Origin: a virus
IMG/VR virus record: IMGVR_UViG_3300045988_131623
DNA: 13,240 bases
Reading direction: 5' to 3' (one strand)
Positions 1-13,240 of the stretch are shown here, one piece after another. Positions within the stretch are counted from its first letter, which is position 1. Each line of letters starts with the position of its first letter. A program made the position numbers and the translations under genes. A model generated the notes under the pieces. It saw only the letters and a list, made by a program, of their open reading frames with translations, searched no databases and was not told the DNA's origin.

Positions 1-251
1 GTGTGTGACGGACACTTTTCCCCAATTTGTCCGCGAGTGACGGACACAGCTCGAACATTCTGTCCGCGACAGACAAACACAAACCGCCCAGTCTGTCCGC
101 GGCGAACGCACACTAAACCAAACATATGTTCGAAATGGCTCCGCTCCCTCCGGTCGCTCCGCCCATGAGTTAGTAGCATTTAACTCTGACGGGAACAAAG
201 TTAGTTCCAACTAACTCACTCGCGAAAAAAGAGGGCAACCGAAGTCACCCT
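1..251. repeat. Left inverted terminal repeat (ITR) of a linear protein-primed genome
   Basis: Positions 1-251 are the exact reverse complement of 12991-13240, verified base by base, except A6 (225-230) versus A5. The ITR begins 5'-GTGTGTG. It contains gtgacggacac at 5-15 and 37-47, and TGTCCGCG(A/G) at 28, 61 and 94. Confidence 0.95.
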
Positions 252-253
252 CT
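225..253 (-). terminator. Intrinsic terminator for the leftward (early) transcript, embedded in the inner edge of the left ITR
   Basis: The minus strand reads 5'-AGAGGGUGAC-UUCG-GUUGCCCUCU-UUUUUU. That is a roughly 10-bp stem with two G-U wobbles, a UUCG tetraloop and a U6 tract, about 140 nt downstream of the DNA polymerase stop. Confidence 0.6.
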
Positions 254-389
254 CACAGAAAATCACTTTTCAATTTCTTTTCTAAGTTCTATATCATAAC
301 TAAGAAGTTCCGCACAAACACTCACAAACAGTCTGTCCAACTCTTCATTAGTTTTTACATATGTCATAGCGTCAAGAGTTCCCTTTAAG

Positions 390-2486
390 TTATCCCTGAT
401 TTTCAATAATTTTCTGTTCATCCCACTTTAACCTTTCCTGTGTTATAAATCTGTCCCAATTTCCAACAGATGCCAAAAGATACATGTACTCCAACGAAAG
501 ACCTATTTCATACGTTGATTCTCGTAGCACAACATTTGAACGAATTTCAATTCGATGTTCTGATGAATCATCTGTATAGTAAGTTCCATAGTCACTGTCA
601 TTGTACACTGATTCCAACTTACCCGAATTACGGAATACGAAACCAACATTGAAGTTTTCGATTGTTCCCATTTCTCTCGCTCCTGCTTTCTTGGGTACTC
701 CTGCGATTGTAATTTTAAATGTCCCGTCTTGTCTAGTGTATGCATACTTTTTCGCTCCTAATGTTTTAAATTGTTTATATGTTTCTTCATATTCATATAC
801 ACCTAAGTAGTGTGTAATGCCTTTTTTGTCATCGGCATATCCTTTATTCGATATGCTGAGTTCTTTCAGACCCTGATTGTATTCCTCTATCCTTGCCACA
901 ATTCTTTTATAATCATCACGAACAAGGAACTTGACAGAATCAGTGTCACAATATACAAAATTATCTCCAACAATGTTTATCATTTCTTTCAATTTTAATC
1001 TAGCCCATGCAGTCACCCAACAGCCCCACGCATATAACAGGAATGCTTTCTTGTTGTATTTTTCCAACTTTTCACCGATATCAACTATATCTTCTAGTGT
1101 AAAAGCTTGGTCTGGTTCATCCATATAGATAACATCTGGTTTCACTGGATTCTGAGCGCACATACCATATAATGAGTTGATAAGTTCCTTACTTCTCATG
1201 TAGTTTAATTCCTGACCATCAACATTCTTGAGTGATGTTTTTTTATGAAACAAGTCAATGACTAAATCACGAAATGCTTGCGGTAAATATCCATATTTCG
1301 CAATATATACCTGACTAATTTCAACCTCTCCAACATACTCACTCTTAACTATTTTCCAGTCTATATCGTTGAATACATATACAGCCTTGTTAGCACTCAA
1401 TATTCTACCATTATCAACAACCTGACCTGATATCTTAACAGCCTTATCGAGACTCAAGTAAGGTGCGCCATAGTAAATATCTCTCTGTTGTAAGTTGGTT
1501 ATTGTAAATACAGCTATAAAACAACAGTCTCTTATCTGGCACTTCTTTTCTAGTTCACCAATATCTGTTATCATTCTAGGAGTAAAAGCACTCATAGGAA
1601 AACGATAGTTTAACATAACATCTGGATAACTGCTCGCCCTGTCATAACTAGCCACATTCTCAAGAATCTTATTGACATGATATCTGTTTGCGTGTGTGTC
1701 ACCACCGCGGAACTCAAGTCTCAACAGCTTATACACATCAACATCACACATCATAGCTTGTAGTTGGTTATGATTAAATTTTCGCATTGCTTCTTTGGCG
1801 AGTCTTCTAACATAACCCGTGGAAGTTAATGGTAAAGAATACAAAGTGTCATTTTCCATTCTCATTCGCACTTGCATAGATTCCAACAGACCAACAACGT
1901 CATTACAACAGTACTGCAATTCTTCTGTTGTCATTTCAGTCCACGGGTAACGCTTCTTTGAATAGTCAAATTCAACACCACTAAGCTTTTGGTGAACAAC
2001 ACCCATATCCCTAGTGAAAGCGTCCAGACTCTTGTTGGTCTGTATATAAGAACATCGAAACTGTACTCCGTCAATATCGGCTCTGACAACCTTTCTAGAC
2101 TTTAGGGCAAATATTTTGTCTTTTTGGAAAGGTAACCAGTGACGCATGAATTGGAATTCATAACTGAGGTTATGTACCCAAACCAAAACCGTAATCCCCT
2201 CATGGTAAAAACTGTCAAGTAACTTAGTGAATTGTTCCCATGTTCTACCAAAACAGTACCATATATTCCCGTTTCTTAAATCCATGACAGCAAATTGCCA
2301 TATATACATAATACTCTGTTCAACATCGTCAAGATAAGTTGTTTCAATATCGAAAGCACACATGCAGTTGCGGAATAATGTCTTATCTGATTTCTTTCTT
2401 TTACTGTAGTTTCTTGCAATTGGTATACTTTTGATAATGTCAGAAACGCACTCTCTTTGGACTTCTTTTACGGAATTCTGATTCAT
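390..2486 (-). CDS. Protein-primed family B DNA polymerase (phi29 gp2-like)
   Basis: Exo I FDIETT, Exo II HNLSYEFQF, Exo III YCCNDV, pre-motif A ASSYP, motif B KELINSLYG, motif C YCDTDS and KxY GAKKYAY are all present in phi29 order. The start is ambiguous: TTG 2537, ATG 2525, ATG 2486 (GGAGAG 13 nt upstream, chosen here) or ATG 2363 just before DIETT. All but 2363 overlap the upstream ORF in another frame. Confidence 0.9.
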   Translation of the reverse strand: MNQNSVKEVQRECVSDIIKSIPIARNYSKRKKSDKTLFRNCMCAFDIETTYLDDVEQSIMYIWQFAVMDLRNGNIWYCFGRTWEQFTKLLDSFYHEGITVLVWVHNLSYEFQFMRHWLPFQKDKIFALKSRKVVRADIDGVQFRCSYIQTNKSLDAFTRDMGVVHQKLSGVEFDYSKKRYPWTEMTTEELQYCCNDVVGLLESMQVRMRMENDTLYSLPLTSTGYVRRLAKEAMRKFNHNQLQAMMCDVDVYKLLRLEFRGGDTHANRYHVNKILENVASYDRASSYPDVMLNYRFPMSAFTPRMITDIGELEKKCQIRDCCFIAVFTITNLQQRDIYYGAPYLSLDKAVKISGQVVDNGRILSANKAVYVFNDIDWKIVKSEYVGEVEISQVYIAKYGYLPQAFRDLVIDLFHKKTSLKNVDGQELNYMRSKELINSLYGMCAQNPVKPDVIYMDEPDQAFTLEDIVDIGEKLEKYNKKAFLLYAWGCWVTAWARLKLKEMINIVGDNFVYCDTDSVKFLVRDDYKRIVARIEEYNQGLKELSISNKGYADDKKGITHYLGVYEYEETYKQFKTLGAKKYAYTRQDGTFKITIAGVPKKAGAREMGTIENFNVGFVFRNSGKLESVYNDSDYGTYYTDDSSEHRIEIRSNVVLRESTYEIGLSLEYMYLLASVGNWDRFITQERLKWDEQKIIENQG

Positions 2487-2946
2487 ATTCGCGATATCTC
2501 TCCAATATTTTTTGTGATGGTTCATTAGTGTGTTCAAGGTATATATCGGCGGCTTTATCGCTGTCGTATATGATATCTTCGGAATGTGTTCTTACAAGAT
2601 TCATAAAATCATAGAACTTTGATGCTTGTCTCCAATTCTTGAACTGATTAGTCCCAAACGTAATATTTAGTCTTTCAACTGCCGCCTTACGCTGTCGTTT
2701 TCTCTCAGCTATCACAAATGTCTTGTTCTTCAATGCCGCTTCTACTTCACGAATTGCCATTTCCAAGTTACGTTTAGACTTAATCTTTGAAACAACTGGA
2801 ATTCTAGGTTCAATATAAGCCCTCGCCGCTTCTACGTCTTTCGCGTAAGCACTTTTAGAAACTTTTGCTATTTGACCTGTAAGTTTCTTTCTCAACTCTC
2901 TGTATTTGACTTCTAGTTGTATTCTACTTGCAGATTTCTTTGCCAT
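2440..2946 (-). CDS. Short basic protein immediately upstream of the polymerase; putative terminal protein (TP)
   Basis: The ATG at 2946 is preceded by AAAGGAG. The protein is K/R-rich, about 168 aa. The segment NQFKNWRQASKF resembles the phi29 TP segment QFNKWKEQASSF as recalled. Its position directly 5' of the polymerase is canonical for a TP. It is shorter than known TPs, hence moderate confidence. Confidence 0.5.
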   Translation of the reverse strand: MAKKSASRIQLEVKYRELRKKLTGQIAKVSKSAYAKDVEAARAYIEPRIPVVSKIKSKRNLEMAIREVEAALKNKTFVIAERKRQRKAAVERLNITFGTNQFKNWRQASKFYDFMNLVRTHSEDIIYDSDKAADIYLEHTNEPSQKILERYREYESEFRKRSPKRVRF

Positions 2947-3097
2947 ATTTTCCACACTCCTTTCCTATTAAAGAGAGTATCACATTCTCTCTCAATACTA
3001 TCATTAATGCATTACTTCTTGAAGTACCCAGTTTAAAAGCAAGTTCATCAAGGTTTTTCAAGATATCCTCTTGAAAATTAACACTCACTGTTTTCAT
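2924..3097 (-). CDS. Ribbon-helix-helix (CopG/Arc/MetJ-type) transcriptional regulator, 57 aa
   Basis: This ORF is not in the supplied track. ATG 3097 is preceded by AAAGGAGAAAACT. The protein is MKTVSVNFQEDILKNLDELAFKLGTSRSNALMIVLRENVILSLIGKECGKYGKEICK, with a beta-strand followed by the G-T-S-R-S turn and helix typical of RHH. Its 3' end overlaps the TP-like start by about 20 nt in another frame. Confidence 0.6.
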   Translation of the reverse strand: MKTVSVNFQEDILKNLDELAFKLGTSRSNALMIVLRENVILSLIGKECGKYGKEICK

Positions 3098-3119
3098 AGT
3101 TTTCTCCTTTCATTCTTGA

Positions 3120-3139
3120 AATGTTTCACGTGAAACATT
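3120..3139. promoter_or_regulatory. 20-bp perfect palindrome AATGTTTCACGTGAAACATT, copy 1; candidate operator
   Basis: The palindrome is perfect. It lies 23 nt upstream of the RHH start codon and downstream of a TGG-TATAAT element on the minus strand. An identical copy is at 7871-7890. Confidence 0.5.
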
Positions 3140-3212
3140 AGTCATCGTGAAGTCCGTCTATGACGAACCCTACAATTATACCAACACATAACCCTAACAA
3201 GAATAGGCTCAT
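3138..3212 (-). CDS. 24-aa hydrophobic micro-ORF (MSLFLLGLCVGIIVGFVIDGLHDD)
   Basis: ATG 3212 overlaps the TGA of the upstream 86-aa gene (ATGA coupling). GAGGTGA lies 6 nt upstream. The product has a single TM-like segment. It is too short to be confident. Confidence 0.25.
   Translation of the reverse strand: MSLFLLGLCVGIIVGFVIDGLHDD
3175..3183 (-). promoter_or_regulatory. Extended -10 element (TGG-TATAAT) upstream of the RHH gene, minus strand
   Basis: The minus strand reads GTTGGTATAATTG. The candidate -35 (TTCTTG at 17-nt spacing) is weak. The palindromic operator sits at about +30 to +48. Confidence 0.3.
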
Positions 3213-3469
3213 TCTCTCACCTCAATAGTTATCTTTTCAATGTTGTCTCCCATAATGGCAGTTACTACCGAACAACCCGCATATAAGAATACCCAGTACT
3301 GGCTGTCATCCACGCAAGGTTTTTTAACTTCGAATCTAACTTTTTCTGTCAGACCTAAGCTAAAGTTGTTAGTCAGCATAACGTTATTGATATAGACAAA
3401 CATTTTACTTCCTTTTTCAATTTCATCGGCTAACCTTTCCAGTGTCTCAACTATTTCTTTCTTAGTCAT
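3209..3469 (-). CDS. Early protein of unknown function, 86 aa, mildly acidic
   Basis: It is the first gene of the leftward operon. The internal ATG at 3469 is preferred because AAAGGAG lies 8 nt upstream; the track start at 3487 would place that SD inside the coding sequence. No recognisable motif. Confidence 0.6.
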   Translation of the reverse strand: MTKKEIVETLERLADEIEKGSKMFVYINNVMLTNNFSLGLTEKVRFEVKKPCVDDSQYWVFLYAGCSVVTAIMGDNIEKITIEVRE

Positions 3470-3515
3470 TGTTAAAACTCCTTTCATATAAGTAGTTATC
3501 TATTGGAACACTTAT

Positions 3516-3544
3516 ACAATACCACATATATTGTTGAATGTCAA
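3516..3544 (-). promoter_or_regulatory. Leftward early promoter (sigma-A type)
   Basis: The minus strand reads TTGACA (3544-3539), a 17-nt spacer, then TGG-TATTGT (-10 at 3521-3516). This gives a transcription start near 3508 and a leader of about 40 nt before the 86-aa gene. Confidence 0.5.
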
Positions 3545-3673
3545 TAATCAAAATGAAAAAATTATTGAAAACATGAAAATATTATGTTACTATAATAATG
3601 TCCTTGAGAGAAATACTTTCACAGGGCAGAAGTCCAAAAACAATTATAATATAAGAAAGGAGATTCCGGTACA

Positions 3674-3982
3674 ATGGTAAGAACAATTACAACTACAGTT
3701 ATGATACTGAGCATTAAAGAAAAAGACAGTGATGACATTAAGCTTGTAACAAAGGAATTCATCGGAACGGGTTGGACGCAGGTAAAAATGTATAATAATA
3801 TGAAAAAAGATGTTGAACTCGTCCCCGCAGGAGCAACTGTTGAAAATATCACTACAGAAACAAAGTTCAACACTTACAAGCTTTCTGACGAGGGTTTTGT
3901 AAGAGCCGCTATTGCAGAGATGGACAGCACAGTGGATGAACCAGAGATTCCAGACGACATGAAACCAGTCGTAACAGAGTAA
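3674..3982 (+). CDS. Small protein with acidic C-terminal tail; possible p6-like dsDNA-binding protein
   Basis: AAAGGAGA lies upstream. The protein is 102 aa. It shares length, a hydrophobic/T-rich N-terminus and an acidic C-terminus (DSTVDEPEIPDD) with phi29 p6 as recalled. The pattern similarity is weak to moderate. Confidence 0.5.
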   Translation: MVRTITTTVMILSIKEKDSDDIKLVTKEFIGTGWTQVKMYNNMKKDVELVPAGATVENITTETKFNTYKLSDEGFVRAAIAEMDSTVDEPEIPDDMKPVVTE

Positions 3983-4052
3983 CAGTAAAAACCTTTTATA
4001 TCTTGTATTGCCATACTTTTCGAATCACTTACAACTGAATATAGAACTATAG

Positions 4053-4063
4053 CGTGAAACATT
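4053..4063. promoter_or_regulatory. Half-site of the palindrome (CGTGAAACATT) abutting the RBS of the SSB-like gene
   Basis: It matches the right arm of the 20-bp palindrome exactly over 11 nt and lies immediately 5' of AAAGGAG at 4064-4070. Confidence 0.25.
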
Positions 4064-4074
4064 AAAGGAGAACA

Positions 4075-4437
4075 ATGAATATGAATATTATTAAAACAAA
4101 TATCAAAGACAATGAGTGGGACATGAATCTGAGTTATGACATGTTTGAGTCCCCGGACAGATTACGTGGTGCTGATTTGAAAGGAAAACAGGTTCACATT
4201 GACAAATTCTGTTTATATGAAGAAGAAAACGCAGATGGTGAACTGGTAAAAGTTCTTACCGTATCTACCAACGAAGGTCATGTTTTCGCAACAACTTCAG
4301 CGGCATTTGTTCGCACATTCGACAGAATTATGGAACTCGCAAAACGTTGCAACGTTGTAGATGTGTGTATCGAAATCGTTACAGAACGTAGCAAGAACAA
4401 CCGGGAGTACATCACCGCAAAATATGTCAAAGAATAA
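4075..4437 (+). CDS. Putative single-stranded DNA-binding protein (phi29 p5-like)
   Basis: The protein is 120 aa. The segment LTVSTNEGHVFATTSAAF closely resembles the phi29 p5 segment TTIFAADGSLYSAISKTV as recalled. Size and context fit. Confidence 0.5.
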   Translation: MNMNIIKTNIKDNEWDMNLSYDMFESPDRLRGADLKGKQVHIDKFCLYEEENADGELVKVLTVSTNEGHVFATTSAAFVRTFDRIMELAKRCNVVDVCIEIVTERSKNNREYITAKYVKE

Positions 4438-5488
4438 ATCCAAGAGCCTGTACACGATGCACGGTTATCTGGACGTTGAGGGGATAGTCAAAAAAGGCTA
4501 TCCCTTTAACTTTATATGGGGTGGACGTGGCACGGGTAAGACATATGGTGGTCTGAAATATGTCGTGGAGCACAACAAGACTTTCATGTATTCTAGAACA
4601 AAACAAACTCAACTCGACAAGATTAAGAACGTTGAGTTGTCCCCATTCAAACCGTTAAATGCAGATAATGATTGGAATATACAGCCATTCCCTGTAGATG
4701 ATATTGCAGGATTCTACCACACAGAACTTAATGAGAAAGACCGACTTGTGCCAGTTGGTTCACCTGTTGGTTATGCGTCAGCTATCACCACACTAGCGAA
4801 TTTACGTGGATTTTCCGCTGAGGATGTGTCTGTGTGGATATGGGACGAGTTCATTCCGCAGAAAGGTGACCGTGTTCCGAAAGGAATTGCAACGTCTTTT
4901 CTTCACGGCTATGAAACTATGAATCGAAATAGGGAGTTGAAAGGACTGCCGCCGCTACAGGTGTTGTGCTTTTCGAACTCAGATAATGTAGGCTGTGAGT
5001 TGTTCGCCAGTCTAGGACTTATCCGCAAAGTCGCGGATATGTCACGGAAAAGACAGGAAACAGCTTTCCTCAAGTCAAGGGGCATCGCTCTGTATAACTT
5101 ATGTAATAGTCCTATCTCACAGGCGAAAAAAGAAACAGCACTCTATAAGATGGTAGGCGAACACAGCGGCTTTTCTCAAATGGCTTTAGGAAACGAATTC
5201 TATAATACTGACTATTCGGATGTAAGATCGCAAAACCTATCGGAATATCTTCCGCTAGTATTTTTCGAAGAAATCGCAATCTATGAACACAAGTCCTCAG
5301 ATATGCTCTACGTGTGTAAACATAAACAGGGTACACCAATTCGAGCATTTACCGGAATTAACGAGAAGAACATCAAAGCTTTTAAAAGGTACTATTCATG
5401 GATATGGAATGTAAATTATCTCGAAGACAAAATCTTTTTCGAGGACATAGAATCTAAATTTCTACTTGACAGCTATTTTCATATGTAG
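4423..5488 (+). CDS. DNA encapsidation (packaging) ATPase, phi29 gp16-like FtsK/HerA-type
   Basis: Walker A is FIWGGRGTGKT (phi29 gp16: VIGARGIGKS). Walker B is VWIWDEF (phi29: IVFDEF). RNRE and CFSNS match the phi29 RNRE and CLSNA. The N-terminal KSLYT matches phi29 KSLFY and supports the ATG at 4423. Confidence 0.9.
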
Positions 5489-5497
5489 TACAATGTT

Positions 5498-5592
5498 CGT
5501 ATAGGGAAAACAAAAGTCCGTGGCACAAGGACATACAGCGGAACTGTAGTGCGAGGATTCGTCCAATCCATGATACGGACTTTCCCTATATT
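5498..5592 (+). ncRNA. Candidate structured RNA element in the 128-nt gap after the ATPase gene
   Basis: The 5' segment 5499-5522 pairs with the 3' segment 5574-5591: TATAGGGAAA/TTTCCCTATA (10 bp), a 6-nt bulge, then GTCCGT/ACGGAC. That is about 16 bp enclosing roughly 50 nt that contains further short helices (GGAC..GTCC, GGATT..AATCC). There is no ORF and no obvious promoter or terminator. Confidence 0.2.
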
Positions 5593-5625
5593 TCACAGTT
5601 CCAAAAAAGAAAGTGGGTGAATAAA

Positions 5626-5823
5626 ATGGACATTAATTCATTAAGTACAATTTTTGCAAATTTGGGTGTGCCTGTGGCATGTCTCACTGTGACATTCTAT
5701 CTGTGGTATCAGGAGATGCAGTCGCACAAAGAAGAAGTGAGTAAGTTGCAGGATGCGCTCAACAACAACACGCTTGTCTTACAGAAAATTCTTGACAGAC
5801 TGGGAGAGGGTGATTCGCATTGA
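5626..5823 (+). CDS. Small single-pass membrane protein; putative holin
   Basis: The protein is 66 aa from ATG 5626, with a GGGTG RBS. The N-terminal hydrophobic helix STIFANLGVPVACLTVTFYLWY is followed by a charged, coiled-coil-like tail. Its stop overlaps the next start. Confidence 0.45.
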   Translation: MDINSLSTIFANLGVPVACLTVTFYLWYQEMQSHKEEVSKLQDALNNNTLVLQKILDRLGEGDSH

Positions 5824-6146
5824 ACATATCAGCAGAAATCATTGCAAAAACATCTGAAAGCGTAAAGGGATATATGCTTCATCCGCACACGGATGTATAC
5901 GGCGAATTAAAAGTTGATACCAAAAACCTTGACTTGATGTTACGCGATGCGCCGACTTATGACAGCAATGTGATCGCTTCTATGCCGAAAGGCAGTATAT
6001 TTTTTGGATATGGATTTACTGATTCCACCCTTAAATGGGTACTCGGACAGTATACCATGCCGAACGGAAAAATGATTGCAGGATTCGCCCACATTGACTA
6101 TTTAATCAGAATTAGAAAGGAGAATAAAAGACATGACAATGGATGA
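5820..6146 (+). CDS. Stand-alone bacterial SH3 (SH3b) domain protein; putative cell-wall-binding module
   Basis: The segment LKVDTKNLDLMLRDAPTYDSNVIASMPKGSIFFGYG...KWVLGQYTMPNGKMIAGFAHIDYL matches the SH3_3/SH3_5 pattern (LNVRsgPs..s.vig.l.kG..v....ngW.kv...G..Gyvh..Yl). A TTG start at 5820 is coupled to the upstream stop. An alternative ATG at 5874 is preceded by AAAGGGA. Confidence 0.6.
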   Translation: MNISAEIIAKTSESVKGYMLHPHTDVYGELKVDTKNLDLMLRDAPTYDSNVIASMPKGSIFFGYGFTDSTLKWVLGQYTMPNGKMIAGFAHIDYLIRIRKENKRHDNG

Positions 6147-6642
6147 TATTATCGCACTCGCGGGTGCGGGATTTACGAAAAATGACATTATTTCATTAAT
6201 TAACACAGCACCAGCACCAGCACCAGCACCAGCACCAGCACCAGCACCAGCACCAGCACCAGCACCAGCACCAGCACCAGCACCAGCGGTACAGCCAAAC
6301 ATGGGAATGCCGCCAGTTCCAGTGGGAGCGATGGCACAGCAGACAGTCACACCACCAGAATTATTACAGGCACAGCTCACAAGTCCGGCAATGGCAGGAC
6401 AGGCTCAGAGTCAGATGTTAGACTATGCTTTTCAGCAGGGAAATTATGCAGGGAGTCCAACACAGAATGTAGTAGGGCGGCAGTTTCCGAACAGTGATCA
6501 GTTGACAAATTCCATCAATGCGCTTACCAGAGCAGTACAGGCGAATGGAATCACACAGAATCTTGCAGGAGTTAATCATGTTCCGACTGTCGACGAAATG
6601 ACAGCGGCTATTATTAATCCACCTAGTGTGGTGAAAGGATGA
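6133..6642 (+). CDS. Protein with a (Pro-Ala)13 linker in the scaffold position upstream of the MCP gene
   Basis: AAGGAGA lies 10 nt upstream. The N-terminal helical motif is DDIIALAGAGFTKNDIISLI. A 26-residue (AP)n tract follows, then a Q/A/N-rich C-terminal half. The gene lies immediately 5' of the MCP gene, as the scaffold gene gp7 does in phi29. Confidence 0.65.
   Translation: MTMDDIIALAGAGFTKNDIISLINTAPAPAPAPAPAPAPAPAPAPAPAPAPAVQPNMGMPPVPVGAMAQQTVTPPELLQAQLTSPAMAGQAQSQMLDYAFQQGNYAGSPTQNVVGRQFPNSDQLTNSINALTRAVQANGITQNLAGVNHVPTVDEMTAAIINPPSVVKG
6208..6285. repeat. Perfect hexanucleotide tandem repeat (GCACCA)x13
   Basis: The repeat was counted directly: 78 nt with no interruptions. It encodes (Pro-Ala)13 in the plus frame. 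Confidence 0.95.
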
Positions 6643-6646
6643 TATA

Positions 6647-7840
6647 ATGGGAACAATAAATACCTTAGAATACTCGAAGCCGTCTATCTGTAGTTTTGAC
6701 TCTTCTAAAATTCTTACCAGTATTGTTAAACAGGCAACAGGAATTTCCGATATTGCAATTATTAATGGTGGTTTTGTGTCTATCGCTACTACTGCGTTAG
6801 GAATTGCACCAGATACATTACTTAGTGCTATGTCACAGGTTATTTCGCGTACTATTTTTTCTGTCAGACCGTATAATCGTAAGTTTGCAGGACTTTTTGT
6901 AGATAACATGAAGTGGGGAAACCATGTTCGTAAAATTAACATCGGAGATAAAGACTGGGAGATAAATGTTTCCTATGATCTGGCAGACGGAGAGAGTGTA
7001 GATGCTGATATTGTAAGCAAGCCGGACATTTTACAGACCAATTTTTATGGACAGTGTGTGTACAGTAAGCATTATACAATTTTTCGGGATCAGTTGAATA
7101 TCGCTTTGCAGAATGAAGAAGAATTTGAGAGATTCTACACAATGCTCGTTCAGAACACAATGGACATGATCGAACAGTGCCATGAAAATACAGCACGCGC
7201 GACTATCGCTAATCTTATTGGCGGAAAAGTTAAAGGTGATGTCAATAACGTTATTCACTTAGTCACAGAATATAACGATGTGACAGGACTCGCACTTGAC
7301 AGTGACACAGTGAAAAAACCAGAAAATTTTGTTCCATTCTACAAGTGGGCATTCTCTAGAATTAAAACAATTTCAGGACTTATGACGGAAAGAAGTTTGC
7401 AGTATCACATTAATATCACAGGGCATAACATCATGCGTCACACTCCTGTTCAGAACCAGAGATTATATTTATACACACCAGAAATGAACAACGTCGAAAG
7501 TTCTGTATTTTCAAGCGTTTTCAATGAACAGTACTTGAAAATGATGGACTATGAGGGTGTTAATTTTTGGCAGTCCATTAAAACACCAATGGGAATTAAC
7601 GTGAACGCACGTTATATTACTGCGACAGGTACTTTAACAACGGACGCTACAGGCACAGCAACTTCAAACATTCTCGGAGTCCTCATGGATGAAGAAGCGG
7701 CAGGGGTCACTACCTATGGTGCAAGAACTGCCGTTACTCCTTACAATGCAAGGGGTGAGTACACTAATGTTTGGTGGCACTTCAACGATCGGTATTGGAA
7801 TGACTTCACGGAAAATGCAGTTGTTTTCCTGTTAGATTGA
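6647..7840 (+). CDS. Major capsid protein (phi29 gp8-like, lacking the C-terminal Ig-like domain)
   Basis: The protein is 397 aa. It lies between the scaffold-position and tail-knob homologues. The C-terminal GEYTNVWWHF..FTENAVVF resembles phi29 gp8 GLYWNYYYHV..FANAVAFV as recalled. AAAGGATGA RBS upstream. Confidence 0.7.
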   Translation: MGTINTLEYSKPSICSFDSSKILTSIVKQATGISDIAIINGGFVSIATTALGIAPDTLLSAMSQVISRTIFSVRPYNRKFAGLFVDNMKWGNHVRKINIGDKDWEINVSYDLADGESVDADIVSKPDILQTNFYGQCVYSKHYTIFRDQLNIALQNEEEFERFYTMLVQNTMDMIEQCHENTARATIANLIGGKVKGDVNNVIHLVTEYNDVTGLALDSDTVKKPENFVPFYKWAFSRIKTISGLMTERSLQYHINITGHNIMRHTPVQNQRLYLYTPEMNNVESSVFSSVFNEQYLKMMDYEGVNFWQSIKTPMGINVNARYITATGTLTTDATGTATSNILGVLMDEEAAGVTTYGARTAVTPYNARGEYTNVWWHFNDRYWNDFTENAVVFLLD

Positions 7841-7848
7841 TATTTTTG

Positions 7849-7860
7849 GTTTCACGTGGG
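7849..7860. promoter_or_regulatory. Partial copy (TTTCACGTGGGA) of the palindrome core, 25 bp upstream of full copy 2
   Basis: It shares TTTCACGTG with the full site. Centre-to-centre spacing to the full site is about 25 bp. Confidence 0.3.
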
Positions 7861-7864
7861 ACGT

Positions 7865-7873
7865 TGTTATAAT
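7865..7873 (+). promoter_or_regulatory. Extended -10 promoter element TGT-TATAAT for the tail gene block
   Basis: TG is at 7865-7866 and TATAAT at 7868-7873, with no good -35. The element overlaps the first 3 bp of the palindrome. The implied transcription start is inside the palindrome and about 27 nt before the gp9-like ATG. Confidence 0.4.
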
Positions 7874-7890
7874 GTTTCACGTGAAACATT
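7871..7890. promoter_or_regulatory. 20-bp perfect palindrome AATGTTTCACGTGAAACATT, copy 2; candidate operator, with a possible weak hairpin-terminator role after the MCP gene
   Basis: It is identical to 3120-3139. It overlaps the -10 element and transcription start of the tail-gene promoter. On the plus strand it is followed by TTTTCT. Confidence 0.5.
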
Positions 7891-7906
7891 TTTCTGAGGT
7901 GATGTT

Positions 7907-9334
7907 ATGAGTTTTGAAGTTAAATTATACAGAGTCAAGAAAAGGAAAAACAGCACTTTCATTCCAGACGGTGAAGCAGGAAGAACCTTGAATTGTGTAG
8001 TAAAAGAGGGAACAGGGGTGCTGACTCCTGTTATTACAATTGCTAATTCAGCGGAGACTTTCAATCCGTCCGTGTACAACATGGCATATATTGAAGCATT
8101 TTCAAGGTGGTACTGGATTACTGACTGGAAAAATGAAGATAATATGTGGACTTGTTCTCTTCGGGTTGATGTTCTGGCAACATATAAGACGGAAATAGCT
8201 GACTATAATTATTATATTTTACGCTCATCAACTTCTTTTGACGGTGATATTATGGATACTTATTATCCGTATAAACCACAGGTTAATCGACATATTTCAA
8301 CAGGAGAACCATTATGGCAATTGGAAAGTGGTCTTGATACAGCAGGAACGTTTGTGGTGAGTATTGTTAATAAATACGGTATCTCAAATTTTTATGCATT
8401 CACACCGCCTCAGTTTAAGGCATTTGCACAGGCAGTATTCGCAAATATCACTTGGATGTTAGGTGATGGGATTAGTGGAATAACAGATAATTTTGCTAAA
8501 TTGTGTGTTAATCCAGCTCAATATATAACATCTGTTCATTGGTTGCCATTTTCAATAGGCGGAACTGATATGGTTGGAATGACAATAGGTTGGTGGGACA
8601 TTGAATTGCCGTCTGGTCTTAAAAAACTTGATGATTCATTATTCAAACGTTTCACGAGTAGCGTTACCCCTGTAGTTCATCCTCAAAGTGCGACGAGAGG
8701 TAACTATCTTAATTCAAGTCCTTATAGAAACTTGAGAATATGGATTCCGGCTTTTGGCGTAATGACAATAGACAGTGCTAAAGTTCCAAGTGGCAACACG
8801 ATTAATATTACAGCATGGGTAGACTCTCGAACAGGTTACGCAATGTGTACCGCTACTACACCTTTAGATACTGGTAACGTAAATGAATTATTAGGGGTGT
8901 TGTATACTAATGTCGCTGTCAACTATCAAGTGAGTGATATAAAAACTAACTATACCGCGATAGCGGACAAAGCTACGTCTGCTTTAGGAAGTCTTGCAAG
9001 TTCTGTGTTGAATCCTATCGGAGGAATCAGCGGCTTCATCAAAAATGGAATCGGCGCTATACAAGCTACAGGTTCAGCAGAGGTCAGCACACGCGGAACT
9101 ATAGGTAGTACAATCGGATTAACGTCTGGTATTTATTGTTACTCAGATTGTCAGTTATTAGTTGACGAGGACAGAGCAGACAATGGGAGACCTTATTGTA
9201 AAAACGGAAAATTTAGTACCCTAGGAAACGGTTTTTACACTGTTGAAAACGGTTCTACTCCTCTGAATGGGGCATATGAAGCTGAAATTGATGAGGTTAA
9301 GAATTTTCTGGAAAGTGGGGTGTATTATGCGTAG
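7907..9334 (+). CDS. Tail knob / distal tube protein (phi29 gp9-like)
   Basis: GAGGTGA RBS upstream. The N-terminal region YNMAYIEAFSRWYWITDWKNEDNMWTCSLRVDVLATY resembles phi29 gp9 [41 protein letters not shown] as recalled. The syntenic position after the MCP gene fits. Confidence 0.7.
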   Translation: MSFEVKLYRVKKRKNSTFIPDGEAGRTLNCVVKEGTGVLTPVITIANSAETFNPSVYNMAYIEAFSRWYWITDWKNEDNMWTCSLRVDVLATYKTEIADYNYYILRSSTSFDGDIMDTYYPYKPQVNRHISTGEPLWQLESGLDTAGTFVVSIVNKYGISNFYAFTPPQFKAFAQAVFANITWMLGDGISGITDNFAKLCVNPAQYITSVHWLPFSIGGTDMVGMTIGWWDIELPSGLKKLDDSLFKRFTSSVTPVVHPQSATRGNYLNSSPYRNLRIWIPAFGVMTIDSAKVPSGNTINITAWVDSRTGYAMCTATTPLDTGNVNELLGVLYTNVAVNYQVSDIKTNYTAIADKATSALGSLASSVLNPIGGISGFIKNGIGAIQATGSAEVSTRGTIGSTIGLTSGIYCYSDCQLLVDEDRADNGRPYCKNGKFSTLGNGFYTVENGSTPLNGAYEAEIDEVKNFLESGVYYA

Positions 9335-9977
9335 TTACTATAATGATAATGGAAATATGTTGCTTTTTTATATTCTTGGGAAACAACAGGGTGGTACTGT
9401 TCCACCTATCATACCCGCAGGTGAATGGAAAACTGTAGTTACTGATACATCGGCAGGTTATCTTAACGATGCAGACATGAAAAGTAATGCCACAATTATA
9501 TGGGATTATTTTCGTCAGAAACTTGGATGGAATGTAAACAGCGTTGCGGCACTCCTTGGAAATATGCAGGGTGAAAGTACACTAAATCCGGGTCTGATTG
9601 AAGTTGGTGGTGGAACTACATCAGCAGGGGCAGGACATGGACTGGTACAGTGGACACCGGCTACTGATTTGTACAAAGTGCTTGATATTTTATACGGTGG
9701 TCACGAGGACTGGTACGATGGAAACAAACAGCTCGGAGTGATATATGCTGAATATCAAGAGAGCGTTGGTGAAGCACACAGAGGAATTGAACCGCAGTGG
9801 TATAAGACCACTAAATATCCATGCGATTTCAGACAGTGGGCTTTTAATCAGCTTAATTATGATTTGGAAAAATTAACCTATGCTTTCGCGGCAAATTACT
9901 TGCGTCCGGCGGTAGTGGAACAGCCACGGAGAGTTGAGTATACGCGGCAATGGCTTGACTATTTCTTAAAGGGGTGA
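9327..9977 (+). CDS. Tail-associated peptidoglycan hydrolase, lysozyme-like domain only (phi29 gp13 N-domain-like)
   Basis: LLGNMQGESTLNPGL and GHGLVQWTPAT resemble phi29 gp13 MLGNMQSESTINPGL and GFGLVQWTPAS as recalled. ATG 9327 follows a GGGGTG RBS, and ATGCGTAG overlaps the gp9-like stop. There is no C-terminal M23 peptidase domain. Confidence 0.8.
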   Translation: MRSYYNDNGNMLLFYILGKQQGGTVPPIIPAGEWKTVVTDTSAGYLNDADMKSNATIIWDYFRQKLGWNVNSVAALLGNMQGESTLNPGLIEVGGGTTSAGAGHGLVQWTPATDLYKVLDILYGGHEDWYDGNKQLGVIYAEYQESVGEAHRGIEPQWYKTTKYPCDFRQWAFNQLNYDLEKLTYAFAANYLRPAVVEQPRRVEYTRQWLDYFLKG

Positions 9978-9978
9978 T

Positions 9979-10899
9979 ATGATGAATGTTTTTAGCACAA
10001 ATGTTCCTGTTAGTTATGACATGATTAACTTGTATACTTCCAGTTATTCCCCGTCTACATTGCATTGCAAGAACACTCAGTTATATTCCTATTTTCTGAG
10101 ATACCTTTTGCAGAAATGTATGTCAGTATTCAAGTGGGATTTGCCGGAAGAGTGGGACAAGAATTATTTTCTGTACACCTTGTACTGTTGGGGATTCTTA
10201 TGTGTTTTTGAAACTGACAAATACGGTGTGATTCCGCAGGCTTGTGGTTTACAGGGATATAATATTTTTTATCAACCTACAGAGGTCAATATTGCAAACC
10301 CGTTGCTGAGAGGTATTAATATAAAAAGAATAAACAAAGACTGTGTAATTCTCAGATTGCAACCAGACTGGCGTGGTGTTATGGACATATGTTCTTACTA
10401 CGCTGATAATATGGCACTGACAGCAGAAACTTGTGAGATTAACATTGCAAACAGTAAATTAACTTATATGTTTGGTGTTGATGGAAAAGTACAGGCAGAG
10501 GCATTGAAGAAAACGTTTGACAAAATTATGTCTGGGAATACCGCAGTATATTATGGTAACAATCTCAGACGTAGGGATGCTATGGGAAATACTACAGACC
10601 CATGGACAACGTTTGCTAATAAGCTGAAAGAAAACTTCATTGCACCAGATTTACAGGATACACTCAGACGGTGGGAAGAAATGTTCTGCAATGATGTTGG
10701 TATTCCGAACGTGAGGTCAGACAAGAAAGAAAGGTTGATTACAGCTGAAGCTGAGAGTAACGATTTCGAAACACAGAGTAAATGTGACTTGTGGCTTGAA
10801 GAATTGCAGAAAAGCTGTAGAAAGATTAATGCTATGTTTGGTGACAAACTGAGTAGTGCCGTGTGGGTTGACTGGAGGAAAGGTAGGGAAGATGGTTAA
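9979..10899 (+). CDS. Head-tail connector / portal (phi29 gp10-like)
   Basis: The protein is 306 aa (phi29 gp10 is 309 aa). KKERLITAEAESNDFETQS and SCRKINAMFG resemble phi29 gp10 KKERMVTDEVSSNDEQIES and ACEKINELYG as recalled. The N-terminal FKWDLPEEW resembles phi29 FEWENLPPT. Confidence 0.85.
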   Translation: MMNVFSTNVPVSYDMINLYTSSYSPSTLHCKNTQLYSYFLRYLLQKCMSVFKWDLPEEWDKNYFLYTLYCWGFLCVFETDKYGVIPQACGLQGYNIFYQPTEVNIANPLLRGINIKRINKDCVILRLQPDWRGVMDICSYYADNMALTAETCEINIANSKLTYMFGVDGKVQAEALKKTFDKIMSGNTAVYYGNNLRRRDAMGNTTDPWTTFANKLKENFIAPDLQDTLRRWEEMFCNDVGIPNVRSDKKERLITAEAESNDFETQSKCDLWLEELQKSCRKINAMFGDKLSSAVWVDWRKGREDG

Positions 10900-10966
10900 G
10901 ATAACGATTGCTTTTCTGGTTGCTGTTGCTATTATTGTGTGGGCAGACTGGACAAATAGAAAGTAG
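10892..10966 (+). CDS. 24-aa hydrophobic micro-ORF (MVKITIAFLVAVAIIVWADWTNRK)
   Basis: The ATG overlaps the connector TAA (ATGGTTAA). GGAGGAAAGG lies 11 nt upstream. The product has a single TM-like segment. It fills the gap between the connector and lower-collar-position genes. Confidence 0.25.
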   Translation: MVKITIAFLVAVAIIVWADWTNRK

Positions 10967-10974
10967 GTGAGAAT

Positions 10975-11640
10975 ATGAGTGCTTATGTTTCTGTAATAGG
11001 GTTGCTTAACTGGGATGAAAATATCATTGACAACACGTTTCTTGATGTATTCATAGCGTTGTTCAAGACCGAAACAATAGCAATGAATATGTTGGAACGG
11101 TTGGAAGATTTGCTTGTGTATGAGTGTGGGGAATTGGAAGTTACATTACCTAACCCAACATTCTTCAAAAAGATTGTCAAAAGTTGGGCAGACAATCAGA
11201 CAGGAGTGTGGAAAGCGTACTACTCCGCACAACAGGCTGTAGAGGTAGATGTGAGTAACATTTTACTGGGAAGTACACAGGAAGTATTGACAGGAAAAGA
11301 TGATACAACAAAGACAAGAAATCTTTCTCATAACGAAACTACCACCTACGACAATGAGGATAACGTAGTCAGTGATAACTCTGTATATGGTTTCAATGAA
11401 AGCGGAGCGAAACCAAAAGACCACTCTGTTGTAACTGATAATACAATCGGTAATAATACTGTCAAATATACAGACGATGAAACCGGTAAAGACGAAAAAA
11501 GTCTAAGTCATACAAAAGTTTTCACAGATTACGGGAAATTTTTTGACTCAGCTGGCAGATTGAATATGGTAGCTGAAATGAATGTCATCAACAAAATTAT
11601 AGTTGATTTCAGAGATAAGTTCTGTTTGAACGTTTATTAA
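10975..11640 (+). CDS. Putative lower collar protein (gp11 position), 221 aa, with a D/T/N-rich central region
   Basis: GGTGA RBS upstream. The call rests on synteny: it lies between the connector and appendage genes. No sequence motif was recognised. Confidence 0.45.
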   Translation: MSAYVSVIGLLNWDENIIDNTFLDVFIALFKTETIAMNMLERLEDLLVYECGELEVTLPNPTFFKKIVKSWADNQTGVWKAYYSAQQAVEVDVSNILLGSTQEVLTGKDDTTKTRNLSHNETTTYDNEDNVVSDNSVYGFNESGAKPKDHSVVTDNTIGNNTVKYTDDETGKDEKSLSHTKVFTDYGKFFDSAGRLNMVAEMNVINKIIVDFRDKFCLNVY

Positions 11641-11653
11641 AGGGGGTATAAAT

Positions 11654-12985
11654 ATGGCATTTTGGAATAAGTTCCCATTTACCAATTTTCACGAAATGAA
11701 TCTGGACTGGTTGATTTCAACCATGAAAGAATTGACGGACGGTTTTAATGTTCTTGACAATAGTGTTAAACAGCAGTTAAAAGACTTTAACACCACAATG
11801 ACTAACACGCTCACTTCTCAGAATACGAAGATTAACGACTTTGTTAATAATTATGAAGCGAAAGTTAATGATATTCCGAATCAGGTGTTGAAAGACGTTA
11901 GAACTGTTATGCATGACTATGAAACTGCTGGCGTTTTTCAAGAAATTATCAAAGATACATATGGAGCAGTCAGTTACCTAAATGACATGCAGAACAAAAA
12001 AATTGTACTTCTCGGAGACAGTTTAACAGATGAGAGCAGATCGGTAAGTTGGGTTAAAAGCTTTAAGACCATGCTGACGGGTACAGGCTGTACCGTATTA
12101 AGTTATGCTAAGTCCGGAGAAAAAATGGAAGAACAGGCTACAAGATTCGAAGCCTGTACCGTAAAACCAGATATTCTGTGGATATGGTGTGGTATTAATG
12201 ATGTGAGAGATCAGACAAGTTTATCTGCATTAAATACCGCTCTACATAAGATAAGAACAAAAGTACAGACACTTAATCCAAAATGTCAGGTGTATCTAAT
12301 GAGTACGTACAAAAATAAGAGAGGTATGCCGTCAGGGTGGGTTATTCCGCAAACGGCATATTGGCGTTATATGAGTCAGTACGCTATAATCAACGGATGG
12401 ACTTTTATTGATGGATTTTCAAGTGCGCCTGTTATTACACCAGAGACATCAATTATGCAGAGTACTTTTTATTCTGAAACCGACAAACAGTATTTACATT
12501 ACACAGCCGCTTACACCGATATTTTAGCAAGGTGGATTTTAAATTGCATGATTAATCAGTCGCCTGTTCCATTAGGAGACTATAAAGAACTTGTTCCATC
12601 GGCTAACTTTTCAGCAAAAATCAATGCGACCTCTAAGTTTGTACCTAACAGTGGTGGCACGTTCTGTGAATTCGGAACGCATATGGTTCATGTAAGATTA
12701 GTGGGTGCTTTCACGCCAGGCTCTAATAGTCCGCAGTACACTAAAATTTGTACGTTACCAGAATTTTGCAGACCAAAACAGACTTTAGGACATGAACTTG
12801 CTTTTCGTGGTGGTGGTATTGGTTCTGATGGTGGTCAGTATGTAGTTCCTGTTTATCTTGATACTGATGGTAGTGTTTATTTTTATAACAGGTCATTGAC
12901 ATTAGAAAGTTTCACTTCTGCCACATTGTCGTGTGATATTTATATTCACGACCTTAAAACTGATTGGGAGAGAACAGCTTCCTAA
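11654..12985 (+). CDS. Tail appendage / receptor-binding protein with a central SGNH (GDSL) hydrolase domain
   Basis: AGGGGG RBS upstream. SGNH block I is IVLLGDSLTD and block III is WCGINDV. An N-terminal roughly 110-aa probable virion-anchor region and a C-terminal roughly 140-aa domain flank the hydrolase core. It is the last gene before the right ITR, as gp12 is in phi29. Confidence 0.7.
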   Translation: MAFWNKFPFTNFHEMNLDWLISTMKELTDGFNVLDNSVKQQLKDFNTTMTNTLTSQNTKINDFVNNYEAKVNDIPNQVLKDVRTVMHDYETAGVFQEIIKDTYGAVSYLNDMQNKKIVLLGDSLTDESRSVSWVKSFKTMLTGTGCTVLSYAKSGEKMEEQATRFEACTVKPDILWIWCGINDVRDQTSLSALNTALHKIRTKVQTLNPKCQVYLMSTYKNKRGMPSGWVIPQTAYWRYMSQYAIINGWTFIDGFSSAPVITPETSIMQSTFYSETDKQYLHYTAAYTDILARWILNCMINQSPVPLGDYKELVPSANFSAKINATSKFVPNSGGTFCEFGTHMVHVRLVGAFTPGSNSPQYTKICTLPEFCRPKQTLGHELAFRGGGIGSDGGQYVVPVYLDTDGSVYFYNRSLTLESFTSATLSCDIYIHDLKTDWERTAS

Positions 12986-12990
12986 ACGTT

Positions 12991-13016
12991 AGGGTGACTT
13001 CGGTTGCCCTCTTTTT
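12991..13016 (+). terminator. Intrinsic terminator for the rightward (late) transcript, embedded in the inner edge of the right ITR
   Basis: The plus strand reads AGGGUGAC-UUCG-GUUGCCCU-C-UUUUU. It starts 6 nt after the appendage gene stop. It is the mirror image of the left-end terminator. Confidence 0.6.
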
Positions 13017-13240
13017 CGCGAGTGAGTTAGTTGGAACTAACTTTGTTCCCGTCAGAGTTAAATGCTACTAACTCATGGGCGGAGCGACCGGAGGGAGCGG
13101 AGCCATTTCGAACATATGTTTGGTTTAGTGTGCGTTCGCCGCGGACAGACTGGGCGGTTTGTGTTTGTCTGTCGCGGACAGAATGTTCGAGCTGTGTCCG
13201 TCACTCGCGGACAAATTGGGGAAAAGTGTCCGTCACACAC
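12991..13240. repeat. Right inverted terminal repeat (ITR)
   Basis: It is the reverse complement of 1-251 except for one A fewer in the homopolymer run. Confidence 0.95.

Follow-up and report, generated by a model that had tools for sequence, protein, structure and literature searches.

The stretch of DNA examined here (the window: 13,240 nt, IMG/VR virus record IMGVR_UViG_3300045988_131623) is read as a linear double-stranded DNA (dsDNA) genome, short by ~17 nt at each end, that belongs to a small phi29-like podophage and comes from a metagenome of human-gut type; we put the probability of this account as a whole, with the replication, transcription, and packaging scheme proposed below, at roughly 0.9. 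Directly downstream of its packaging ATPase gene lies a 93-nt structured RNA, which we are somewhat inclined to regard as a genuine prohead (packaging) RNA (pRNA). If so, pRNAs would for the first time be known from beyond the Salasmaviridae that infect Bacillus, as a family carried by hundreds of gut podophages of 12-14 kb.

The genome is bounded by inverted terminal repeats (ITRs), and all six hallmark proteins of the phi29-like group (p2, p16, and p8-p11; Evseev et al. 2024, PMC11476376) were found in it: the protein-primed DNA polymerase (pPolB), gp16, gp8, gp9, gp10, and gp11. An earlier reading of the letters alone (the first-pass annotation) had described a small ITR-bounded, protein-primed phi29-like podophage, and these features bear it out, protein priming being almost certain; it had missed the RNA, the gp11 lower collar protein, a ribbon-helix-helix (RHH) regulator, and a holin-like protein. 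In size and layout the genome is unexceptional, being a further member of a known, catalogued group.

A structured RNA downstream of the packaging ATPase gene

The 128-nt gap between the ATPase gene and the next gene is highly conserved in alignments of relatives (related contigs are given L numbers here), with compensatory changes. In the window, the 5′ and 3′ ends of the RNA pair as helix P1, followed by a 6-nt A-rich bulge in the 5′ strand, an 8-bp helix P2, and a three-way junction. One arm consists of P3a (GCAC/GUGC), a 7-nt bulge AAGGACA, and the hairpin P3b (loop CGGAA); the other is the hairpin P4, with loop CGUCC. The GGAC of the bulge is complementary to the GUCC of this loop.

The same three-way junction is returned by RNAalifold for 20 relatives, with 26 pairs, 6 of them compensatory, and a 98-nt segment of the window has a minimum free energy (MFE) of -31.3 kcal/mol (z = -3.8). 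A covariance model finds the RNA in distant relatives as well, with E ~1e-9 in L005 and 1e-5 in L004, and weakly in L008, L009, L030, and L007. Eighty further loci were fetched with an ATPase profile, 71 after duplicates were removed; 67 of the 71 have the RNA, always on the ATPase strand and nearly always 10-55 nt past the ATPase stop codon.

Over 38 distinct sequences, 94.2% of alignment cells are paired, versus 62% after shuffling and 30-44% with slid partners, and both partners vary in 32 of the 35 pairs; because the alignment was fitted to the model, these figures lean towards the helices that the model contains. The bulge-loop helix is outside the model: 97% of its cells are paired and all four of its pairs covary. 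This pairing is considered the decisive interaction. At least four contiguous Watson-Crick pairs join bulge and loop in 54 of 59 distinct RNAs, compared with 5.4% of cross-pairings. The pairing comes in 21 types, including GGAC/GUCC, AGUCA/UGACU, GUACA/UGUAC, GCACA/UGUGC, GGGUA/UACCC, GCUA/UAGC, and AAUCA/UGAUU; another, AACCA/UGGUU, is phi29's own pair (AACC/GGUU).

In one subclade (L007, L030, L060, L061, L082, and L089) a hairpin and a U-run come next after the RNA. Two hairpins replace P3b there, and the loop of the downstream hairpin is conserved (GUGUCAnAGC) ahead of the U-rich run; either a terminator or a second RNA domain is possible.

Packaging RNA or leader

Acceptance of a pRNA has been based on a three-way junction, covarying loops that pair over 3-4 nt, and the presence of gp10 and gp16 in the same genome (PMC12670572, PMC5066667). 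All three were found here: the junction, covarying complementary loops, and both genes. In phi29 the loops pair between molecules, and the ring on the prohead is built in this way (PMC5066667). Folded by MFE, the phi29 pRNA shows the elements of the 93-nt RNA in the same order. Its 5′ and 3′ ends form a terminal helix, bulged in the 5′ strand 8 bp before the junction is reached; one arm is bulged on its 5′ side (AACC, called the CE or right-hand loop) and has the hairpin E at its far end; after a short junction comes a hairpin with the 5-nt loop UGGUU (D, or left-hand). The Rfam Phage_pRNA family likewise has the long helix joining the two ends, this bulge, a bulged arm, and an arm with a 5-nt loop (PMC12670572, PMC5066667), together with covarying bulge-loop complementarity of 4-5 nt and gp10 and gp16 in the genome. 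The phi29-family pRNAs differ from the 93-nt RNA in having no sequence or covariance-model similarity to it, and in length, site, and host: the window RNA is shorter and follows the ATPase gene, whereas the phi29 pRNA (120-174 nt) is at the left end, and it occurs in phages whose hosts are probably other than Bacillus. The phages named in a 2025 survey that added 12 pRNAs are Bacillus phages (PMC12670572), and in the literature searched there was no report of a pRNA in any others.

A tentative alternative, and on the whole a doubtful one, is that the RNA acts in cis, as the 5′ leader of the late operon, or is a small RNA of some other kind; bulge and loop would then pair within one molecule in the manner of a pseudoknot, and late-gene translation or the stability of the transcript might be under its control. 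Several observations weigh against a packaging role, and most of them would suit a leader. In the window and many relatives no terminator separates the RNA from the next gene, whose ribosome-binding site is 25-45 nt past it. The arms are short and nearly equal (P3a 4 bp, P4 5 bp), so that bulge and loop could meet in a single molecule, and covariation cannot tell intermolecular from intramolecular pairing. In L004 the ATPase gene is on the other arm, and the RNA has stayed with the head genes, directly upstream of the holin-like/scaffold/capsid block. The Rfam pRNA model and all other Rfam families gave no match (window, E<=1; 5470-5620, E<=10) apart from a chance snoRNA. Neither of two RNA models (R1 and R2) has a significant match in phi29, the Amedibacillus phage AD70P3, the Salmonella phage astrithr, or the Clostridium phage HM2; for AD70P2 and AD70P3 the best score was 10.6 bits (E=3.6), not significant, though located in the gap after the packaging gene.

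Against a leader, the RNA reproduces the topology of the phi29 pRNA element for element, down to a 5-nt loop on arm two whose last four bases do the pairing, and is found always in genomes that carry gp16 and gp10, the association used to accept pRNAs (PMC12670572). In the subclade described above, moreover, the RNA has its own promoter as well as the terminator-like hairpin and U-run, and looks like an independent gene there.

If the packaging role is correct, the motor RNA is not a quirk of phi29 and its kin: it would be ancient and widespread, its sequence diverged but its three-way junction and interlocking loops kept. The origin of pRNA is debated (an RNA-world relic, a substitute for a terminase domain that has been lost, or a vestige of cellular origin), and a second, divergent family with 21 natural loop-pair variants would make this question testable. 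The packaging-motor and RNA-nanotechnology fields would also gain new compact, self-assembling three-way-junction RNAs.

Genome ends and inverted terminal repeats

Positions 1-229 are the reverse complement of 13012-13240 at 100% identity. Past a single-base indel in an A-run (A6 in the left copy, A5 in the right) the repeat extends as far as positions 251 and 12991; the two copies are thus 251 and 250 nt long, with 99.6% identity and one gap (blastn), and not the perfect 250-bp repeat first described. The indel is reproduced in L032, an independent ENA assembly of the same sample, which is 100% identical to the window across their common sequence; it is trimmed by 174 nt at both ends relative to the window and has an N-gap at a (GCACCA)n repeat (see below).

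The first-pass annotation took both physical ends to be present, but comparison with relatives places them outside. Nine contig ends in six related IMG/VR contigs start exactly with AAAGTATA[TC]ACATGTCCG; the common terminus can be written 5′-AAAGTATAYACATGTCC, and the form shared by the nine ends is AAAGTATAYACATGTCCG. One of the relatives, L025, reads AAAGTATATACATGTCC and then the window sequence from base 1 on. Across all IMG/VR contigs, the 18-mer terminus has nine matches in these six related contigs, each exactly at a contig end. Sharing of the stop base by independent contigs is the pattern of a true molecular end. By this comparison the window is short of ~17 nt per end, which would make the true ITR ~268/267 nt and the genome ~13,274 bp.

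Chance occurrence of the 18-mer was considered and set aside, its lone internal match (L114) being in unrelated sequence. That match (1674-1691 of IMGVR_UViG_3300045988_071245, an unrelated 26.5-kb viral contig) is followed by a GTCCG..CGGAC hairpin, and is probably itself due to chance. The possibility that GTGTGTG at window base 1 is a jumping-back terminus was ruled out by the 17 further bases upstream in relatives.

The phi29 6-bp terminal repeat is 5′-AAAGTA (PMC11476376), and sliding-back initiation on 3′-TTTCAT has been described (PMC4974454). The terminal AAA reiteration of 5′-AAAGTA is present at the nine contig ends and probably at those of the window genome; this A-triplet supplies the reiteration needed for sliding-back on 3′-TTTCAT. 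Relatives with both ends kept have ITRs of 240-311 nt, with 83-100% identity between copies. A long ITR is therefore a clade trait: the first-pass contrast with the 6 bp of phi29 stands as to length, but not as a peculiarity of this genome.

Within the ITRs (1-125, mirrored at 13116-13240) is an array of TGTCCG motifs phased from the terminus, with an inverted CGGACA after each of the first two; it is kept in relatives, and is possibly an array for an origin-binding protein. The left ITR also contains a conserved AAACATATGTTCGAA block. The GTCCG/CGGAC words of these motifs recur as helix P2 of the 93-nt RNA.

Nature of the molecule

That the ITRs are an assembly artefact, the actual molecule being circular, circularly permuted, or concatemeric, is very improbable. 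Short-read assemblers can produce inverted duplications at contig ends, and both assemblies of the sample are truncated symmetrically, by 17 and 174 nt. Symmetric truncation is, on the other hand, expected, since the two ends share k-mers. Independent contigs (L016, L018, L024, and L027) have ITRs of 240-311 nt of different sequence, and the copies differ by an indel in the window and by up to 17% in L021, which is not expected of artefactual duplication. The exact stop base shared by nine related contig ends, with its phi29-type AAAGTA, is also at odds with an artefact, as is the encoding of a pPolB; neither a terminase nuclease nor an integrase was detected. Marginally less remote, though still highly unlikely, is a linear plasmid, phage-plasmid, or defective or satellite element in place of an autonomous virulent phage. 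Phage-plasmids with ParA/RHH and toxin-antitoxin genes exist among phi29-like sequences (PMC11476376), and the window does encode a small RHH protein; but Pfam, PHROGs, and NCBIfam scans found no ParA, toxin, integrase, or other maintenance gene, while replication, head, tail, packaging, and cell-wall-hydrolase genes are all present, at a coding density of 91%. Cultured relatives with the same module set (AD70P2/P3 and Astrithrvirus) form plaques.

A few points weigh against reading the window as a protein-primed phage genome of this kind. The AAAGTA terminus lies outside the window itself and is supplied from relatives. A covalent terminal protein (TP) is not demonstrable from sequence, and the protein proposed for this role (orf168) has no significant similarity to phi29 gp3 in sequence or fold searches: hhalign gives 0.9%, and Foldseek ranks the phi29 TP second, but with E=1.9 and TM 0.21. 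A homology of orf168 to gp3 was dropped on these figures. Lastly, a host search with the major capsid protein (MCP) across genome contigs found no relative.

Proposed replication, transcription, and packaging

Replication would be protein-primed from both ends, by pPolB together with a small, basic, helical protein, the candidate TP. Given 5′-AAAGTA termini like those of phi29, synthesis would start across from an internal T of 3′-TTTCAT and then slide back, and the displaced strands would be coated by a p5-like single-stranded DNA-binding protein (SSB). Transcription would proceed outward from a central divergent region via host sigma-70-type promoters. The leftward operon would comprise orf92, the RHH regulator, the TP candidate, and the polymerase, and the rightward operon orf102, the SSB, and the packaging ATPase; a second promoter, in the 3′ end of the ATPase gene, would produce the 93-nt RNA and the genes for the holin-like protein, scaffold candidate, capsid, tail knob, lysozyme, portal, lower collar, and esterase appendage. 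A common hairpin terminator, on the inner border of each ITR, would end both operons. The packaging motor would consist of the gp10 portal and gp16 ATPase, most likely together with a ring of 93-nt RNAs whose neighbours are joined by the 4-5-nt bulge-loop pairing.

Relation to other phages

More than 2000 phi29-like entries are public, including many human-metagenome genomes of 12-15 kb (PMC11476376). Comparison with viral and metagenome databases, suggested as a check at first pass, found relatives in both, among them homologues of phi29-like structural and replication proteins. About 20 close IMG/VR relatives (11.8-13.5 kb) have exactly the gene order of the window, which is shared by hundreds of related public gut contigs as well; the protein clusters of the window run to hundreds or thousands of members across public assemblies, and contigs with these genes reach a maximum of ~14.5 kb. 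The suggestion that this would be among the smallest tailed phages was overstated: related isolates in the phage collection (Vibrio K58 g2, Shigella vB_SHGBLB0004, Astrithrvirus, Phanie, and AD70P2/P3) range from 10,390 to 12,320 bp.

The nearest relatives are uncultivated gut phi29-like phages (IMG/VR 3300045988_097681, which is L025, and 3300029529_000073, L022; GenBank MT837434, MT837693, MT835998, and MT836263), whose records are neither annotated nor described in any paper found. Besides the gene order and ITRs of 240-311 nt, they share the terminal sequence, pRNA-like RNA, and terminators, with MCP identities of 82-88% and polymerase identities of up to 99%; orf92 is present in some only. 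Their modules are mosaic. In L010-L028, identity to the window is 85-99% for the polymerase, 60-99% for gp9, 54-99% for gp11, and 43-99% for the appendage, which points to frequent modular recombination within the clade. This group of tiny gut phages is large and catalogued, yet almost unstudied; the value of the present genome is as a clean, near-complete reference, with defined termini, full annotation including gp9 and gp11, and a testable TP candidate.

Phi29 itself (Salasvirus phi29, Salasmaviridae) has in common with the window genome the 5′-AAAGTA terminus, a linear genome with a divergent early-left/late-right layout, pPolB, gp16, gp8, gp9, gp10, gp11, the gp13 lysozyme domain, a p5-type SSB, and an RNA of pRNA topology with complementary bulge and loop. 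It is larger (19.3 versus 13.3 kb), with an ITR of 6 versus ~268 nt. Its ATPase gene ends the late operon, whereas in the window this gene precedes the head genes and the SSB gene is on the rightward strand. No homologues of gp3, gp4, gp6, gp7, gp8.5, gp12, gp15, or the M23 domain were detectable in the window. It has neither the gene order and accessory set of Salasmaviridae sensu stricto (p4, p6, p7, p8.5, p12, and p15) nor a pRNA recognized by the Rfam Phage_pRNA model.

Among cultured phages, the Amedibacillus podophages AD70P2 and AD70P3 (12.2-12.3 kb; Guelinviridae according to NCBI) infect gut Firmicutes and are of similar size. They are homologous in polymerase (33%), MCP (32%), ATPase, gp9, and portal, with the ATPase gene upstream of the head genes; they differ in having all genes on a single strand, with the polymerase module not inverted, a GC content of 26.5% versus 39%, and no ITR visible in the record. 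For other Guelinviridae, the polymerase is 37% identical to that of Clostridium phage HM2 (33% to AD70P3), while for the MCP no Clostridium phage was matched, only AD70P2/P3. The ITR of Streptococcus phage Cp-1 is ~236 bp. Cp-1 (Madridviridae), a podophage that replicates by protein priming, likewise has a long ITR, along with a 3′-TTT terminal reiteration (PMC4974454), and was absent among the tblastn matches listed for the polymerase and MCP. Astrithrvirus and its kin from Gram-negative hosts (Salmonella astrithr, 11.6 kb; Phanie; DU_PP_III; Vibrio K58 g2, 10.4 kb) are small phi29-like podophages too, with polymerases at ~34-36% and MCPs at ~23-27%, and have the small membrane protein conserved. 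They differ in being smaller, with the portal gene ahead of the MCP gene; their terminase gene is not followed by an intergenic gap, and the RNA models find no match in them.

Gene content

Family profiles were built from relatives and each compared with every phi29 protein (hhalign). The features of the window are collected in Table 1.

Table 1. Features of the 13,240-nt window, in order of position (ORF, open reading frame; aa, amino acids; pI, isoelectric point; AF2, AlphaFold2).
Feature	Position	Strand	Evidence and remarks
Left ITR	1..251		~17 nt (AAAGTATATACATGTCC) absent upstream of base 1
TGTCCG motifs in ITR	-4, 28, 61, 94 (reconstructed 13, 45, 78, 111)		Spacing 32-33 nt, ~three helical turns
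Hairpin AGGGTGAC-TTCG-GTTGCCCT + TTTTTT at ITR inner edge	232..251	-	Conserved in relatives
Small ORF, 52 aa	263..421	-	Downstream of polymerase gene, overlapping
Protein-primed pPolB	390..2537	-	PF03175 4e-17; phrog_1907 1e-65; hhalign to phi29 gp2 99.6%, residues 5-549
Candidate terminal protein (orf168), 168 aa, pI ~10	2440..2946	-	Directly upstream of polymerase gene, overlapping
RHH (CopG-like) putative transcription regulator, 57 aa	2924..3097	-	Weak: PF01402 E=0.008 (under curated cut-off); phrog_4738 4e-4; RHH-type NCBIfam matches
Perfect 22-bp palindrome AAATGTTTCACGTGAAACATTA	3119..3140		Upstream of RHH gene; candidate operator
Accessory ORF (orf92), 92 aa	3209..3487	-	In some close relatives only
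Divergent intergenic control region, 186 nt	3488..3673		Consensus matches only
Promoter-like site TTGACA-17-TG-n-TATTGT	3544-3516		Leftward
Promoter-like site TTGAAA-17-TACTAT	3565-3593		Rightward
Acidic protein (orf102), 102 aa, pI 4.6	3674..3982	+	"p6-like" gene of the first-pass annotation
p5-like SSB, 118-120 aa	4075..4437	+	phrog_6243 5e-4; family profile vs phi29 gp5, hhalign 81%, E=1.2e-5
gp16-type packaging ATPase, 343 aa	4457..5488	+	PF05894 8e-7; phrog_2150 2e-21; hhalign to gp16 99.7%; longer ORF from 4361
Sigma-70-type promoter TTGACA-17-TACAAT	5466..5494	+	11/12 matches; inside 3′ end of ATPase gene
pRNA-like structured RNA, 93 nt	5499..5591	+	Directly downstream of ATPase gene
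Small single-pass membrane protein, 68 aa, holin-like	5617..5823	+	Putative function
108-aa protein	5820..6146	+	No matches in family scans
Acidic 169-aa protein (orf169) with (Ala-Pro)n tract	6133..6642	+	Upstream of MCP gene
Major capsid protein, gp8 type, 397 aa	6647..7840	+	PF25622 4e-15; hhalign to gp8 94.8%
Hairpin/palindrome region GTTTCACGTG..TATAAT..TGTTTCACGTGAAACA, then TTTTT	7849..7891	+	Downstream of MCP gene
Tail knob, gp9 type (orf475), 475 aa	7907..9334	+	AF2 pLDDT 80; Foldseek to 5fb5, E=4e-12, probability 1.00, TM 0.51
Tail-associated lysozyme	9327..9977	+	PF18013 8.5e-23; hhalign to gp13 residues 5-158, 99.4%
Portal/upper collar connector, gp10 type, 306 aa	9979..10899	+	PF05352 1.4e-19; phrog_2038; hhalign 99.7%
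Lower collar/proximal tail tube, gp11 type (orf221), 221 aa	10975..11640	+	81-homologue profile vs gp11, hhalign 87%, E=3.9e-6
Appendage/receptor-binding protein with SGNH (GDSL) esterase domain	11654..12985	+	PF13472 9e-10
Right ITR	12991..13240		250 nt, one A fewer than left copy; also ~17 nt short
Twin hairpin + T-run	12991..13016	+	Likely terminator of rightward (late) operon

Most of the first-pass gene assignments hold: pPolB, gp16, gp8, gp9, gp10, the gp13-like N-terminal lysozyme, the p5-like SSB, and the appendage are all supported by Pfam, PHROG, hhalign, or fold matches. The labels "TP-like" and "p6-like" do not, as no sequence or fold similarity to gp3 or p6 was detected; they are positional. 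With the first family profiles, hhalign gave no signal for gp3, gp4, gp6, gp7, gp8.5, gp9, gp11, gp12, or gp15. No tRNAs were detected in the window.

The polymerase translation includes the motifs ExoI (FDIET), ExoII (NLSYEF), KELINSLYG, YCDTDS, and KKY. The TP candidate upstream of it (168 aa when counted from the ATG chosen by the gene callers) is one of at least 427 family members, which range from 168 to 224 aa; it has a conserved [YF][DP]S[DE] motif (YDSD, residues 127-130), and its relatives have basic tails. Its model is all-helical (pLDDT 86), and places YDSD at a loop/helix boundary between the fifth and sixth helices. TPs beyond the Salasmaviridae are not recognizable (PMC11476376); the label is a positional guess, yet a reasonable one. 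Three homologues of the candidate (P0009, P0060, and P0063) carry the JGI name "acetyl-CoA carboxylase alpha subunit," which has no Pfam, PHROG, or NCBIfam backing and looks like a misannotation.

The RHH-type matches to the 57-aa regulator were all that the NCBIfam scan added, and are weak. The acidic orf102 product agrees with phi29 p6 (104 aa, pI 4.5) in size and charge; this agreement was rejected as evidence of homology, and hhalign to gp6 gives 1.2%. For the SSB (orf120), the profile match to gp5 lends moderate support to a p5-type assignment.

The packaging ATPase is of gp16 type, without a nuclease domain, and its PF05894 score is above the curated cut-off. The 68-aa membrane protein has no family match in Pfam, PHROGs, or NCBIfam, and is kept beyond the close relatives (AD70P3, astrithr gp05, L004, L005, and L009), always near the ATPase and head genes. 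Judged by its position, orf169 possibly encodes the scaffolding protein; hhalign found no similarity to phi29 gp7. Its (Ala-Pro)n tract is encoded by the (GCACCA)n hexanucleotide repeat at 6194-6293, of uncertain repeat number, where the independent assembly has its N-gap. Many public contigs are half-genomes, of ~6.1 kb (left) or ~6.7 kb (right); assemblies evidently break at this repeat.

The gp9 assignment comes from the fold search, the only one to match, in which 5fb5 is a crystal structure of the phi29 gp9 tail knob; hhalign and phmmer against PDB gave no sequence-level signal. The one low-confidence stretch of the model (residues 347-401) is long, part helix and part coil. Phi29 gp9 has a flexible, membrane-active loop. 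Residues 347-401 may be the counterpart of this long loop. In the lysozyme, the gp13 match is confined to residues 5-158, and there is therefore no M23 domain; neither this domain nor gp8.5 nor a separate endolysin domain was detected, in agreement with the first-pass annotation. The lower collar protein is shortened (221 aa, versus 293 aa for phi29 gp11). Its profile has as best match in PDB 6qz9, "Proximal tail tube connector protein" (phi29 gp11; E=0.0015), and together with the hhalign result this gives the gp11 assignment moderate support. Direct phmmer searches of PDB with orf475, orf221, and orf171 yielded nothing useful. The appendage has a conserved N-terminal anchor, the rest being highly variable among relatives.

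Genome organization and regulatory sites

The GC skew changes sign at ~3500, near the divergent control region. The first-pass annotation had the gene order unlike that of phi29, which is correct. The layout is no peculiarity of this genome: an early ATPase gene is normal in the clade (AD70P3, L004-L009, L030, and the ~20 close relatives), and rearrangements are frequent among phi29-like phages (PMC11476376). In the distant relatives L005, L007, L008, L009, L030, and AD70P3 all genes are on one strand, in the order TP candidate, polymerase, (SSB), ATPase, (small membrane protein), (scaffold candidate), MCP, gp9, (lysozyme), portal, gp11, appendage; in L004 the replication and ATPase block is convergent with the structural block. 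The ATPase-before-head order is therefore ancestral for the clade, and the lineage of the window has merely inverted the RHH-TP-polymerase block.

The "p6-like," SSB, and ATPase genes do open the rightward operon, as first described, apart from the p6 identity, but the promoter in the 3′ end of the ATPase gene divides orf102, the SSB, and the ATPase from the downstream late genes. Nearly every lineage examined has kept the -35 box of this promoter (TTGACA) ahead of the RNA, along with a -10 element. The outward-facing hairpin and T-run at 232..251 are likely the intrinsic terminator of the leftward operon. Downstream of the MCP gene, 7849..7891 could be a terminator or attenuator, an operator-flanked promoter, or both.

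The palindrome core TGTTTCACGTGAAACA at 3119-3140 occurs again at 7870-7891, beside TATAAT, with partial copies at 7849-7862 and 8639-8665. In L107 the palindrome separates the -35 box of the RNA promoter from its -10, and in L018 and L043 it is downstream of the RNA. It is likely an operator, for which the adjacent RHH protein would be the candidate binder. The palindrome is also present in L061, L082, and L089, and its sites adjoin promoters and the starts of gene blocks.

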